Assembly (NCBI GenBank): GCA_022823055.1 | Contig: JAJDXX010000240.1 | Location: forward strand, 8,794 to 72,793 | DNA from: Candidatus Binatia bacterium | GTDB lineage: Bacteria > Desulfobacterota > Binatia > UBA9968 > JAJDTQ01 | Length of the DNA stretch: 64,000 nucleotides | Direction: 5' to 3' | Shown here: positions 37,754 through 43,902 of the stretch, in pieces | Position numbering within the stretch: position 1 is the stretch's first letter | How the letters are laid out: each line of letters starts with the position of its first letter | Notes under the pieces: generated by a model | The model's database searches: none | What the model saw: the letters and a program-made list of their open reading frames with translations, nothing else | Told to the model about the DNA's origin: nothing | Program-made: the position numbers and the translations under genes

Positions 37754-38347
37754 TCAACGTGGATCCGGCAGGTAACCGCGATAACGAAAGAAGCGCCGGA
37801 GAAACGTTCGGAATGAATCCGACGAGTTCTCTACATCCTTCAGCAGCCTTCCGTCCTCGATTCTTGCCGCAAAGGAAATGCATTTCTCTTCCTTCGCTGC
37901 CTCGGGTATTCGAAGTTGCGCAAACTCGGGATGTGTCTTGCTGCAGAAATCGCGAACACTCGCCCAACGACATCGCGATCCATGCGAAAACGATGAGGCG
38001 TATTGAACCTCGACCTCCTGTTCGCCCCCATATACTTCCCGGGTCGAAATGGCCAGTTCCTTTTTCGATTCGGCTTCGACGTAGAGACCCGACAAACTCG
38101 CTACATACTCGCCGACGTCCAGGTACGACCTGGGATTGTCAAACACCACTCTAATTTGTGGGTTGGCGCAAATGATGTCGTATTTCATCGGGTTCGATAT
38201 GACAAACTCAGCGGATTGCCGGTCGTCGGCTACAACGACCGTCTGCTTCACCACGAGATCGACGGTTCGAAAATTCGGCGGGCTGTACGTGCATGAACTC
38301 ACGAACAAGACGGCGAGGAAGATTCTCGAATACCTTGGTTTTGCCAT
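37754..38347 (-). CDS. Putative lipoprotein, unknown function (operon gene 6)
   Basis: MAKPRYSRIFLAVLFVSSC: signal peptide with lipobox-like VSS-C. Lower GC. No family recognised. Alternative start 38365. Confidence 0.55.
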   Translation of the reverse strand: MAKPRYSRIFLAVLFVSSCTYSPPNFRTVDLVVKQTVVVADDRQSAEFVISNPMKYDIICANPQIRVVFDNPRSYLDVGEYVASLSGLYVEAESKKELAISTREVYGGEQEVEVQYASSFSHGSRCRWASVRDFCSKTHPEFAQLRIPEAAKEEKCISFAARIEDGRLLKDVENSSDSFRTFLRRFFRYRGYLPDPR

Positions 38348-38348
38348 T

Positions 38349-38843
38349 CTAGTACCCACGCTCACGTTGTTTGAGTGATCTCGGGTGTCCCGAGCACCTC
38401 ACTTCCCTGAGTTCCTCTCCCATGGTCGTGTTCGAAAAACCCGTCATCTGCAAGGCCACGACTTCTCCTCTCCGGTTGGTTCGAAGAACGAGGTCCACCG
38501 TCCTGTTCCAACCGAGGCCGCTTGCGTGTTCCGACGTGAATATTTCCGCGGGATGTGACAAGCGTGGTTGGTGGTCCGCGGGAACTTGCGGCGAAAACAG
38601 GGCCAGGACATGGTCGAAACGGGCGTCCCGCACACGTAGCCACACGCGCCGGTGACAGCTATTGTCGGCGCATCGGTTTGTCGTCTTCTCGGTCCATATT
38701 TCCAACTGACAGTCGAAAGCTCGTTGCCGCGGAATCCCGGAGAGCACGGACCAGAATGCGAGGTTGCTTTGCGTTTCGGCCAATGCGGGTCCGGCCGGCA
38801 GGAGGATGGAAAGGGCGGCGAGCAACAAACGATGCAGGACCAT
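38349..38843 (-). CDS. Secreted hypothetical protein (operon gene 5)
   Basis: Signal peptide MVLHRLLLAALSILLPAGPALA-ETQ. Several Cys. No family recognised. Confidence 0.6.
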   Translation of the reverse strand: MVLHRLLLAALSILLPAGPALAETQSNLAFWSVLSGIPRQRAFDCQLEIWTEKTTNRCADNSCHRRVWLRVRDARFDHVLALFSPQVPADHQPRLSHPAEIFTSEHASGLGWNRTVDLVLRTNRRGEVVALQMTGFSNTTMGEELREVRCSGHPRSLKQRERGY

Positions 38844-38849
38844 TGGCCG

Positions 38850-39557
38850 TCACCGGGTCGCGCCATACTGTGGCAACTTGTCGAGGAGGTCCCGGACGTT
38901 CAACCAGTCGACACTGGTCGCCAAGGCTACGCGGCCTGTTCGATCCTTGATCCAGAAATGGAGGGCGCTATTCTTGCAAACGTCCAACGTAGACAAAGTG
39001 AACTGCACGGTGACGCGGTCCGACAACGGGCGAAGCAAGACCCCGGCGGCAACCTGCGGGCCGCTATGGTCCCTGACCACGAAGGCCCGTCTGCGAGAAG
39101 TGACAATAAGGTTTAGTTGGTAGGGCAACGATACCTGCGGGTTGCGGATGTGAATGGCGAGCTTCACGGAAACCCGCGGCTGTTCAACAGGCAAGGTCCT
39201 CAACACGGCGCGGTGCCGGATGTGTGCCAGCGTATTCGCGTCGAGAGTCCTGTAGATGCTGCGACGGGGCTGCGATGTAAGGTGCCGGTTGGCGGCTCGC
39301 GCGATGCGGTTCTGTTCCTCCAGGAAGCCGTTTACCGCTTCGCAACCGAGCGGGAAACGGCCGACTTCGGTGGCTTGAACTGAAACCGGGCCTTCGAAGA
39401 CCGCGGACCTCAGGCGGTTGCACAGATCGGCGGAAAGGGCGTGGAAATCCGATACGCATTGGATGGGCAAATCGCGGAAACCGGTCGCAAGATCGCGACC
39501 GTGCGCCGCCGTGGGCGCTGTGACCGAAAGAAGGAGCACCAGGGAGAAACGCCACAT
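38850..39557 (-). CDS. Secreted hypothetical protein (operon gene 4)
   Basis: Signal peptide MWRFSLVLLLSVTAPTAAHG. 5-6-nt gaps to neighbours. No family recognised. Confidence 0.6.
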   Translation of the reverse strand: MWRFSLVLLLSVTAPTAAHGRDLATGFRDLPIQCVSDFHALSADLCNRLRSAVFEGPVSVQATEVGRFPLGCEAVNGFLEEQNRIARAANRHLTSQPRRSIYRTLDANTLAHIRHRAVLRTLPVEQPRVSVKLAIHIRNPQVSLPYQLNLIVTSRRRAFVVRDHSGPQVAAGVLLRPLSDRVTVQFTLSTLDVCKNSALHFWIKDRTGRVALATSVDWLNVRDLLDKLPQYGATR

Positions 39558-42165: not shown

Positions 42166-42219
42166 TTCCGGATACCTCCTGCTTTCGACCTCACGTAGAC
42201 GGGCCGGCGGACTCAGCGC

Positions 42220-43719
42220 TTAAGGTTTCGGCTGATACGCGACCCTAAACGGCACGGTTCCAAAGTTCATGAAGTAGTTCAACTCGGTTTGTTCGCTCTC
42301 GAGGTGGAATTGGACGTCTGCCACGGCCTTCCGAACACGTCCCTCGCGAACCGATTGGTCGATGTCGACCTTGTAAGTATGAGTTGAGCATCGACGAGAG
42401 AGTCCCAGGAATCCCACTCGATCACAATGCCGTTTGAGCCGCTTCTCCTCGATTATGGGTTTGGTGGCGAACTTCAACTCGTCGAGGTCGGTTGAACTAA
42501 TGAGTTTGCCCAAGCGACCCAAGATCCCGTGGGCAAGAGTCGTGAGGGCTTCTTGCTTCAGGGCCTCTTTCTGTTTCTCGGAAAAGTTTGTCCGGAGGCC
42601 CTGTTTGACGGTCACCTTGAGGGTTGTCCCGGGTCCCTGAAGCTCCATCATGTCCTCCACGACTGCCTCGGCACTGATATCGCCGGTGGCAGTGCTGATG
42701 CGCGACAACACGATGTCAGCCGTTTGGTTGACGTCGAGCTTGACGGTGATGGATGCCTCGCTCGCCACGGGAAAGACGTACGTGTAAACGGCGGTGACGA
42801 GCGCCAAGGGCGACGTTTTGGGTTCGGAGAAAACGGTAGGTCTGAAGCGCTTGGATTCTGTGTCGTAGAACGAACAGGCTCCGGCCAGACTCATGTGAAT
42901 TGCTGCGGCGGCTCCTGATTCGAATGCGACGACGTCACGTTGATTCTGCGGCCGGCCGATGAGGGGTGACAAGCGACTGGTGGCGTCGGAGGCCGCAAGT
43001 ACTTCGTAGATGGAATGCAGGCCGGCAACCTTCACGGAGAAAACGATGGGGAACTCCTGTTGGTAAACGAACTCGCCGGTCGATGGTATCGGGGAATATT
43101 GCTTGCTGACAAAACTGAGGTATCCACCGACGATTGGAAGGGTACTTATCTGGATACCCTTTGATTCGAGGTCGTTCTTCTCGACGAAATCGTCGATGTC
43201 CCGTCCCCACGGTATTGTGAGCAGGCCTGTGCCGTGGGCGCCGTCAACTTTTTCGAAATAGCGGCGTAGATTCGTTCGGAGACTGCCGATGGAGTTGTCC
43301 AATTCCATCACATGTTGCGTGATCTCGCCGGCCTCCTTGAAGTTTTTCGCGGCTATGGCTGCACTGTGGTGGTCGGATAGGACCATTTTGGCATCGGAAA
43401 AGTTCTTGAGTGTTCTCAACTCGGAAGTCCACTCGTCACAACGAAAAAGACTGCCGGAGCCTACTATGGAATCGAGAACGAGCTTCCCGTGATTGGGGGG
43501 TTTGACGTAGATGGTCTTGCAATCGCGGGAAATGAGTACCCGGTCCAAGGTAAGGTTGTCGGTACCCTTCAGGTTGGTCATCACGGGGCAAGCTGCTTCG
43601 GCATTGTATATGGGGAATGCCGTCGCAGGTGGCGCGAACGAGGCGCCTGAGACAAGGGCGAAGGCTAGACATAGAGTGGACGGAAAGGACGACTGCCGCT
43701 TTGGTGGTTTTGTATTCAT
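42220..43719 (-). CDS. Large secreted Cys-containing protein with coiled-coil segment (operon gene 1; paralogue of gene 3)
   Basis: GGAG 7 nt before ATG 43719. Signal peptide MNTKPPKRQSSFPSTLCLAFALVSGASFAPPATA. About 47-48 % G+C in hand-counted lines. Confidence 0.7.
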   Translation of the reverse strand: MNTKPPKRQSSFPSTLCLAFALVSGASFAPPATAFPIYNAEAACPVMTNLKGTDNLTLDRVLISRDCKTIYVKPPNHGKLVLDSIVGSGSLFRCDEWTSELRTLKNFSDAKMVLSDHHSAAIAAKNFKEAGEITQHVMELDNSIGSLRTNLRRYFEKVDGAHGTGLLTIPWGRDIDDFVEKNDLESKGIQISTLPIVGGYLSFVSKQYSPIPSTGEFVYQQEFPIVFSVKVAGLHSIYEVLAASDATSRLSPLIGRPQNQRDVVAFESGAAAAIHMSLAGACSFYDTESKRFRPTVFSEPKTSPLALVTAVYTYVFPVASEASITVKLDVNQTADIVLSRISTATGDISAEAVVEDMMELQGPGTTLKVTVKQGLRTNFSEKQKEALKQEALTTLAHGILGRLGKLISSTDLDELKFATKPIIEEKRLKRHCDRVGFLGLSRRCSTHTYKVDIDQSVREGRVRKAVADVQFHLESEQTELNYFMNFGTVPFRVAYQPKP

Positions 43720-43851
43720 GGGATTCTCCGTGTGTCCTCCACGAGCCGTAGTTGCCATGCCTCTCCTGCGTGCGAAAAGCCGTCGATCACCGGCAACTCG
43801 TTTCTTCTTGACGACTCGTCACAAATTTCCTCCAGCCCCTTATGTAGAAAG

Positions 43852-43902
43852 CCGTACCAAATAGTACGGAACCAGCGTACCCTACGTTACGGTTCTTGTC
43901 AA
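43852..43902 (-). promoter_or_regulatory. Putative sigma70-type promoter plus palindromic operator upstream of the six-gene operon
   Basis: Minus-strand reading: AAAAAAATTTG-TTGACA-N17-TACGCT-GGTT-CCGTAC-TATTTG-GTACGG. The same architecture occurs at 52701-52756 and 58083-58126. Confidence 0.5.

Follow-up and report, generated by a model that had tools for sequence, protein, structure and literature searches.

Very few operons whose products are all exported are, to our knowledge, understood, curli and Fap being the examples. In the curli (csgBAC-csgDEFG) and Fap (fapABCDEF) systems, the structural products carry Sec signals, two paralogous main subunits are combined with one lipoprotein or outer-membrane component and with small helper proteins of the periplasm, and no energy-coupling protein is encoded. 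Exported proteins with long helical hairpins are also found in the two- and three-component pore-forming toxins XaxAB/YaxAB, Hbl and Nhe and in the periplasmic adaptors EmrA, HlyD, MacA and AcrA. Here, a cassette of six minus-strand genes, lettered A (5'-most) to F and spanning positions 37754-43719, is analysed in a stretch of 64,000 nucleotides (the window) of contig JAJDXX010000240.1 from a Candidatus Binatia bacterium. The preferred reading, which is tentative and held at somewhat less than an even chance, is that the six genes form one mobile operon encoding a self-contained extracytoplasmic complex. On present evidence, the six-protein system falls outside all known kinds, as judged against Pfam, NCBIfam, PADLOC, PHROGs, PDB and BFVD and with a usable structural model for C alone.

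Conservation and mobility of the six-gene cassette

A preliminary description of this DNA, made from its letters alone, had reported six tight minus-strand open reading frames (ORFs) with one ATGA overlap and gaps of 1-6 nt, and all six are present at exactly those coordinates in the ORF list of the window (Table 1). The overlap joins B and C, and the other junctions consist of 54 nt (A-B), 5 nt (C-D), 6 nt (D-E) and 1 nt (E-F). Shine-Dalgarno-like motifs are good before A, B (AGGAGG) and C and weak before D, E and F. The putative promoter lies 155 nt upstream of the start of A, inside the 478-nt gap to a divergent Bmp/ATP-binding cassette (ABC) transporter operon; a consensus scan missed it, as its -10 element matches three of six positions, and as a promoter it is only a suggestion. 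At its 3' end, the cassette is convergent with a thiamine-diphosphate enzyme gene.

The order A-B-C-D-E-F, whose conservation elsewhere the preliminary description had left to be checked, recurs in six other loci (L003, L004, L007, L092, L094 and the P0036 locus) and persists down to about 18% identity, with protein sizes, signal peptides and cysteine patterns likewise kept in the divergent loci. At the greatest distances, A, C and F alone can be recognised by profile, the F-family profile detecting L092 and L094, and exported proteins without detectable similarity take the places of B, D and E. In L094, gene 7346, at the A position, scores as A and gene 10001, at the C position, as C, so the A/C duplication is older than the spread of the cassette. 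Variant layouts also occur: L089, L090 and L091 each hold two A/C relatives, recognised by profile, amid exported proteins of unknown family, and L096 combines one A/C relative with a second, candidate gene of similar size. Leucine-rich repeat (LRR) proteins are located within or directly after A/C clusters in two loci (L090, 16004-17419; P0036 locus, 13204-14124), the former with the lipobox LVSAC; the presence of LRR proteins hints at target binding.

Comparison of the window with L003 yields, for all six genes, proportions of non-synonymous differences (pN) of 0.24-0.37 against saturated synonymous proportions (pS) of 0.71-0.85, including D (0.37 and 0.79) and E (0.36 and 0.85). Since pN is far below pS throughout, all six, E included, are real genes under purifying selection. 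Gene E is called in L003, L004, L007 and L092; on the source scaffold L001 (12340-12834) and on its sister scaffold L006 the gene finder overlooked it, a gap in public annotation. In L007, a gene for 309 amino acids (331-1260) overlaps the start of A and is weakly A-like (hidden Markov model E 2.7e-7); it is possibly a truncated third paralogue.

The guanine-plus-cytosine (GC) content of the window cassette is 58.0%, compared with 65.7% and 66.0% in the two flanks, so that the lower GC noted in the preliminary description holds in direction, whereas the size of its hand-counted contrast was exaggerated. Cassette GC is below that of the flanks in L003 as well, and the flanking genes differ at every six-gene locus; the divergent Bmp/ABC operon of the window, for instance, is absent from the other loci. 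Because of this lower GC, these unrelated contexts and the insertion sequences beside L007 and L092, the cassette can be regarded, on sequence grounds, as accessory or foreign and horizontally mobile, in agreement with the origin first suggested for it. A possible transposase relic had also been proposed next to the operon, and this was not borne out: only a small upstream ORF is present (43936-44043, minus strand, 35 amino acids), which has no Pfam match, and flanking repeats, tRNA genes and Rfam RNAs that might serve as insertion landmarks were not found around the window cassette.

Searches with C-specific patterns through 185,579 species-representative genomes returned no relative, and a scan with a narrower alignment retrieved a single contig, from a JGI metagenome. 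A second genome scan, using the neighbouring ABC ATPase, gave matches of 48-67% identity, the best in Alphaproteobacteria; no empty insertion site was found in it, only Bmp being syntenic. Alphaproteobacteria metagenome-assembled genomes (MAGs) and Devosia encode proteins with 60-74% identity to the ABC ATPase and Bmp next to the cassette. By these matches, the host of the window would probably be an uncultured alphaproteobacterium.

Directly upstream of the L004 cassette, three opposite-strand genes (150-2681) look like anti-phage defence; they encode a WGR/HIT protein, a CAP12-PCTIR TIR-domain protein and a protein of 263 amino acids with a sub-threshold nucleotidyltransferase-like match. 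With such a neighbourhood resembling a defence island, with L092 lying amid insertion sequences and a DUF3987 gene, and with a patchy, rare occurrence and fast-evolving accessory subunits, the cassette might be cargo of mobile islands that provides envelope-level defence against phage adsorption or injection or against predatory bacteria. This explanation is nevertheless highly improbable. The defence-type neighbourhood is confined to one locus, PADLOC gives no match at E<=1, and many of the carriers belong to the predatory Bdellovibrionota, where housekeeping genes surround the locus. Nor does the cassette occur in the collections of phages and plasmids or in IMG/VR, as tblastn found no match among 50,697 phage records or in plasmid records and the narrower-alignment scan of IMG/VR found no viral contig that carries it.

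Export signals and conserved cysteines

Signal peptides and lipoboxes were called heuristically, by a hydrophobic N-terminal stretch and small residues at -3/-1, in 24 proteins comprising the six of the window and their orthologues in L003, L004 and L007. An N-terminal hydrophobic stretch is present in all 24, and later membrane-like segments are essentially absent, borderline hydrophobic windows occurring solely in L003 C and L004 D. All six window proteins have small residues at -3/-1, the signal-like N-terminus of A ending in PPATA/FP. By these calls, the preliminary description was right that every product looks exported and that F bears the lipobox VSS-C. When the pattern [LVI][ASTVI][GAS]C was applied to F at the end of the signal peptide, it was matched in four loci, by VSSC in the window (FVSS-C19), VASC in L003, LSGC in L007 and IVSC or LVSC in L004, and F looks like a lipoprotein by this criterion. 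Residue +2 after the lipid cysteine of the window F is Thr. In Escherichia coli, Thr at this position sorts a lipoprotein to the outer membrane, a rule that is possibly different in this host; if it applied, F would go to the outer membrane.

The mature proteins contain conserved cysteines at kept positions and in even numbers: six in A (C44, C67, C94, C282, C432 and C444), two in B (C67 and C191 in the four-locus alignment), eight in C (the six common to A plus C124 and C212), four in D (C34, C46, C72 and C194, kept in L003 and L007), four in E (C45, C58, C63 and C150, kept in L003 and L004, with two in L007) and four in F in addition to the lipid cysteine. Such even, conserved cysteines are the pattern expected of disulfide-bonded periplasmic or extracellular proteins, and disulfides would therefore be predicted here. 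The net charge of B is -14 in the window, -21 in L003, -23 in L007 and -1 in L004. Residues 34-100 of D, in which a C-x11-C-x25-C arrangement is followed by a helix, loosely recall the way in which A and C begin (C-x17-C-x26-C-helix); the hhalign alignment of the two regions has a probability of only 1-1.6%, and the likeness may be due to chance.

A cassette in which all products are exported, the main subunits are paralogous and one lipoprotein accompanies small accessory proteins, with no ATPase, could follow the logic of curli (Csg) or Fap, that is, an ATP-independent extracellular assembly in which A and C are polymerised on the surface, the lipoprotein acts as the outer-membrane component and small periplasmic proteins assist. 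This option is very unlikely. None of the six proteins matches the CsgA/B, CsgE, CsgF, CsgG or Fap families in Pfam-A or NCBIfam; C is large, confidently folded and has conserved cysteines, unlike the imperfect-repeat amyloid subunits of curli and Fap, which pass the outer membrane in an unfolded state (no search aimed at tandem repeats was made); and F has about 180 residues, with nothing that shows channel formation.

Paralogy of A and C and breadth of their family

The profiles of A and C align by hhalign with a probability of 98.3% and an E value of 1e-14 over 350 columns. Both families share six invariant cysteine columns, and the helical insertion of C is much longer than that of A. Judged from these alignments, A and C are true paralogues, and the coiled-coil, cysteine-bearing paralogues recognised in the preliminary description are thereby substantiated. 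An all-against-all profile comparison of the six families revealed no related pair besides A and C.

The view of the preliminary description that none of the products belongs to a recognised family is likewise supported. The six window proteins gave nothing in Pfam-A, NCBIfam, PADLOC or PHROGs even at E<=1, the PHROGs hits at E>0.06 being noise, and the profiles of all six families have no match among PDB sequences. A 148-sequence A/C profile retrieved only coiled-coil noise from PDB, and 60 diverse A/C relatives searched against Pfam (E<=0.01) matched only spurious coiled-coil models. Signatures of a known pore-forming toxin, Mce system or curli system, the families against which the preliminary description had set its proposal, were not found, nor were signatures of an usher; the profiles MlaD, PapD, Usher and Secretin received no Pfam or NCBIfam match from any of the six proteins. 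Two further candidates, the periplasmic proteins TraH, TraN and TraU of F-type conjugation and the Glt proteins of gliding motility, were rejected after negative scans of the whole of Pfam and NCBIfam. A literature search by keywords and by sample accession yielded nothing relevant.

The breadth of the A/C family was underestimated in the preliminary description, as at least 323 clusters over several bacterial groups, with a conserved six-gene order, are now recognised. Word-indexed searches, which covered 5.8 billion proteins, returned three clusters for C and four for A, and one with the 148-sequence alignment added no protein to the three already known. The six-gene loci were read from the contigs of these clusters and of more distant relatives. 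In an exhaustive HMMER search of a joint A and C profile against 1.84 billion representatives, clustered at 50% identity, relatives were found in at least 323 clusters at E<=1e-3 and in 151 at E<=1e-10. A hydrophobic stretch at the N-terminus is present in 140 of the 149 full-length representatives listed and a lipobox in none, and the lengths are bimodal (about 470 and about 540-570 amino acids). Orthologues of A (P0005-P0007) are 44-64% identical to it. The few members with names are all annotated "hypothetical protein" and belong to Bdellovibrionota, Bacteriovoracales, Zooshikella sp. RANM57 (WP_431720189.1) and Candidatus Thiodiazotropha.

Predicted structure of C

The AlphaFold model of C, built from the 148-sequence family alignment, has a predicted local distance difference test (pLDDT) score of 85.9 and a predicted template modelling (pTM) score of 0.69, whereas that of A, built from a 7-sequence alignment, has a pLDDT of 34 and is unusable. 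In the model, four long helices are read as one antiparallel hairpin with a kink in each arm, followed by a beta domain and a helical cluster with an invariant C-x4-C (Table 1); from the helix lengths, the hairpin would measure roughly 100 angstroms. C124 and C212 are located on opposite arms, about 42 and 46 residues from the predicted tip, a placement that fits a disulfide staple across the arms and thus supports the hairpin independently of the model. C proteins of the L004 type have an extra cysteine pair at positions 153 and 163, ten apart, which by analogy with C would lie roughly at the tip. The tip region is poorly conserved in the family alignment. In the family-averaged hydrophobicity profile, the twelve most hydrophobic 15-residue windows all begin between residues 6 and 17, and no hydrophobic or obviously amphipathic insertion element is apparent beyond the signal peptide.

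Structural comparison was suggested in the preliminary description and was performed for C, for which Foldseek found nothing in PDB above a template modelling (TM) score of 0.27. A single match reaches E<=1e-3, namely EmrA (E 4.7e-4), and it is followed by HlyD, MacA, AcrA and LipC as well as by STAT cores, Smc arms and BAR domains. These PDB matches have TM scores of 0.08-0.18 on the query, with root-mean-square deviations (rmsd) of 20-40 angstroms; the periplasmic adaptor matches have TM scores of 0.17-0.27 and rmsd values above 30 angstroms (EmrA 40). Nothing was found in BFVD at E<=0.001.

These best matches raise the possibility that A and C are divergent periplasmic adaptors, whose hairpins would dock on a TolC-like channel of the outer membrane, encoded at another site, to form or plug a periplasmic conduit. 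The predicted order of secondary-structure elements fits, with strands leading into a long hairpin and back to strands and a beta domain, and the estimated hairpin length is comparable to that of EmrA. However, the low TM scores and high rmsd values come from a list that also holds STAT, Smc and BAR hairpins, and HlyD, HlyD_3, HlyD_D23 and Biotin_lipoyl_2 are matched neither by A and C at E<=1 nor by the 60 relatives at E<=0.01. The signal peptides look cleavable, with no lipobox in the 149 representatives and no membrane helix; no inner-membrane transporter (ABC, resistance-nodulation-division or major facilitator superfamily) or outer-membrane factor is linked in nine loci; the hairpin tip is poorly conserved, as described above; and the proteins have an additional C-terminal body that is rich in helices and contains a conserved C-x4-C pair. 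An adaptor function is therefore quite improbable, and the resemblance of the modelled C to adaptors is one of architecture (strands, long hairpin, beta domain and periplasmic location), not of fold membership.

Another explanation holds that A and C constitute a secreted binary membrane-active or pore-forming toxin, which would be oxidised in the periplasm, exit by host type II secretion and co-assemble on a target membrane, with F, D and E serving as chaperones or for protection of the producer. It accords with the unequal length of the paralogous components, as in two-component toxins, and with the mobility and lower GC of the cassette; a Sec signal together with disulfides is typical of type II substrates. 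The named carriers are predatory or host-associated, the C model contains two long beta elements of 22 residues each (359-380 and 516-537), and weak PDB profile matches to XaxA and Hbl-L1 were obtained. These matches, however, are confined to the coiled coil and stand beside tropomyosin and Smc, and they reflect composition rather than homology. Neither the six proteins nor the 60 diverse relatives match a toxin family in Pfam, the Foldseek top 50 of C contains no pore-forming toxin, the insertion element that such a toxin would be expected to carry is missing from the hydrophobicity profile, and six exported partners exceed the needs of known binary toxins. Taken together, a binary toxin is unlikely. 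The long beta strands had also been considered as a MACPF/CDC feature, a reading rejected as no such fold occurs among the Foldseek matches of C. The surface structure, toxin or pore, or adhesin proposed in the preliminary description is still a matter of conjecture, an adhesin or toxin role being neither supported nor contradicted.

A proposed extracytoplasmic complex

According to the preferred reading of a self-contained extracytoplasmic complex, all six proteins would be exported via Sec and oxidised in the periplasm, and assembly would proceed without a dedicated ATPase, transporter or secretin, using the Sec, Dsb and Lol pathways of the host and possibly its type II secretion. A transporter, ATPase or secretin common to the neighbourhoods was not found across nine loci. 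The core would consist of the ancient paralogues A, with a short helical region, and C, with the hairpin, together with the small protein F. Through their helical hairpins A and C may pair into a hetero-oligomer, which F, lipid-anchored in the window and presumably in the outer membrane, would tether to the outer membrane or to the surface of the cell. Fast-evolving and lineage-specific, B, D and E could serve as adaptor, chaperone or specificity subunits. The role is likely to be an interaction with the outside, in which other cells are adhered to or attacked or the envelope is protected, rather than metabolism; the lean towards cell-cell interaction is due to the mobile-island contexts, the fast-evolving accessory subunits, the embedded LRR proteins and the predatory or host-associated named carriers.

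Several points weigh against this proposal. The cassette is known here from sequences and one model, that of C, and a distant known relative could have been missed by searches that did not include HHpred or the AlphaFold database. An outer-membrane channel or surface-export route was not identified, and the proteins may thus simply stay in the periplasm. In L094, the lipobox (NLVGC) is located on the E-position protein (12724-13170), the signal peptide of the F homologue being of the ordinary type, and F is thus not lipid-anchored in every locus; the lipid anchor would therefore have moved between subunits during evolution. The roles given to B, D and E are guesses.

A bolder version, to which only a low probability is assigned, is that the cassette represents a new class of ATP-independent, Sec-fed envelope or surface machine, in which a disulfide-stapled hairpin pair and a small protein or lipoprotein are combined with interchangeable accessories. 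It would serve predators (Bdellovibrionota) and host-associated bacteria in the recognition of, or attack on, other cells, and would have spread horizontally to other Proteobacteria.

Many conserved operons without assigned function exist, and the present cassette is a well-supported, broadly distributed and wholly uncharacterised module of predicted exported proteins. If the six proteins formed one machine, it would be a new multi-protein envelope system of Gram-negative bacteria, working without an energy source or secretion channel of its own. With a family description and a structure, hundreds of dark proteins could be annotated, as the at least 323 clusters have no Pfam or NCBIfam family and no solved structural relative. 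Predatory Bdellovibrionota and a marine symbiont are among the named carriers, which points to a function in the interaction between cells and would make the system of practical interest for predation, symbiosis and toxin discovery, and Zooshikella sp. RANM57, a cultivable carrier of a variant locus, may render it experimentally tractable.

Features of the cassette and neighbouring regions

The coordinates of the cassette genes, the segments of the C model and the protein sizes at the six other loci are compiled in Table 1.

Table 1. Features of the window cassette (positions in the window), segments of the C model (residue numbers) and conserved six-gene loci (protein lengths in the order A-F; aa, amino acids).
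Feature	Position	Strand	Size	Description
Gene A	42220-43719	minus	499 aa	Predicted exported paralogue with shorter helical region; alternative ATG at 43758
Gene B	41179-42165	minus	328 aa	Predicted exported, acidic; fast-evolving accessory position
Gene C	39563-41182	minus	539 aa	Predicted exported paralogue with long helical hairpin
Gene D	38850-39557	minus	235 aa	Predicted exported, basic
Gene E	38349-38843	minus	164 aa	Small, predicted exported
Gene F	37754-38347	minus	197 aa	Predicted lipoprotein; third member of conserved core; alternative GTG at 38365
Putative promoter	43874-43902	minus		TTGACA, 17-nt spacer, TACGCT; read by eye
C model	49-75			Predicted short strands
C model	79-104, 121-164, 169-209, 225-249			Four predicted long helices, read as one antiparallel hairpin with a kink in each arm
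C model	253-333			Predicted beta domain
C model	334-356			Two predicted short helices
C model	359-380 and 516-537			Two predicted 22-residue beta elements
C model	427-512			Predicted helical cluster with invariant C-x4-C
L003			500/326/538/236/158/201 aa	45-64% identity to window across the six proteins
L007			515/335/523/233/163/205 aa	Insertion sequence adjoining
L004			480/363/532/227/160/233 aa	About 20-30% identity where detectable; D undetectable by BLASTP
L092			483/364/532/242/160/279 aa	NCBI MAG; three insertion-sequence families and DUF3987 flank the cassette
L094			484/386/539/369/148/222 aa	Organism of 38% GC; most distant six-gene locus
P0036 locus			504/296/559/235/151/127 aa	LRR protein next

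Among the variant loci, a gene for a bpMoxR-type AAA+ ATPase lies 8-9 kb from the A/C-family genes in both of the two examined (L089, 346-1266; L090, 900-1880), which may be coincidence. The Zooshikella bpMoxR gene is accompanied by genes for a protein of 328 amino acids without a Pfam match and for the transglutaminase TgpA.

L006 is a 99.3% identical copy in the sister sample of the source metagenome scaffold L001 (KELL22-1, SAMN22237328); the source samples are SAMN22237328 and SAMN22237338. Within the cassette the two scaffolds show four synonymous and five non-synonymous differences, too few for an informative ratio of non-synonymous to synonymous rates (dN/dS). Over the equivalent of window positions 30000-51000, pS is about 0.003 in the cassette and the ABC operon and ten to forty times higher in the adjacent genes (thiamine-diphosphate enzyme 0.04, TetR 0.024 and Fer4 0.115), a contrast suggestive of a mosaic produced by recombination or of a sweep that recently affected the cassette side.

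A second stretch of lower GC (56-62%) is located 6 kb from the cassette, at window positions 49782-52659 on the minus strand, and may be another accessory island. Its three co-directional genes encode a protein of 276 amino acids with one membrane-like segment and weak TPR matches, a protein of 233 amino acids that combines a twin-arginine-type signal (RRRFLSLLAG...) with a papain-like Peptidase_C70/C39-like domain, and a DUF900 alpha/beta hydrolase of 393 amino acids; a DUF3891 gene is next to them. Two paralogous TetR regulators on the plus strand (35081-35734 and 49093-49698) bracket the thiamine-diphosphate enzyme gene, the cassette and the ABC operon, and share a near-identical stretch (LEVAQRASASKETLYTWFGDKLGLFEAVI in one and LEVAKRASASKETLYAWFGDKLGLFEAVI in the other).

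Comparison with known systems

Among the structural matches of C, the STAT core fragment resembles the model in the order of its coiled-coil bundle, beta domain and helical domain, with a Foldseek probability of up to 0.97. However, STAT proteins are eukaryotic cytoplasmic transcription factors and the TM score is about 0.16, and the resemblance is a chance likeness in architecture. For the beta pore-forming toxins, the MACPF/CDC proteins and aerolysin, there is neither a Pfam match nor such a structure among the Foldseek PDB matches listed. The XaxAB/YaxAB, Hbl and Nhe toxins likewise consist of paralogous, unequal and exported components with long helical hairpins and are often mobile, although the similarity of A and C to them does not exceed the coiled-coil level and a Pfam match, a hydrophobic head and a beta-tongue are all missing. 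The curli and Fap systems share an operon logic with the cassette, which is not evidence of membership; the generic properties of export, a lipobox and this logic are all that the cassette has in common with the known families compared. Here, A and C are folded proteins of about 500 amino acids with cysteines, and no channel protein is recognised in the cassette. Finally, EmrA, HlyD, MacA and AcrA are similar in their periplasmic export, and the predicted succession of N-terminal beta strands, a long antiparallel hairpin and further beta structure in C may correspond to theirs. In contrast to these adaptors, A and C are without a membrane anchor, a linked transporter or a sequence relation, and they are distinguished by six shared cysteines, by their constant occurrence as a pair of short and long paralogues and by the extra helix-rich C-terminal body.

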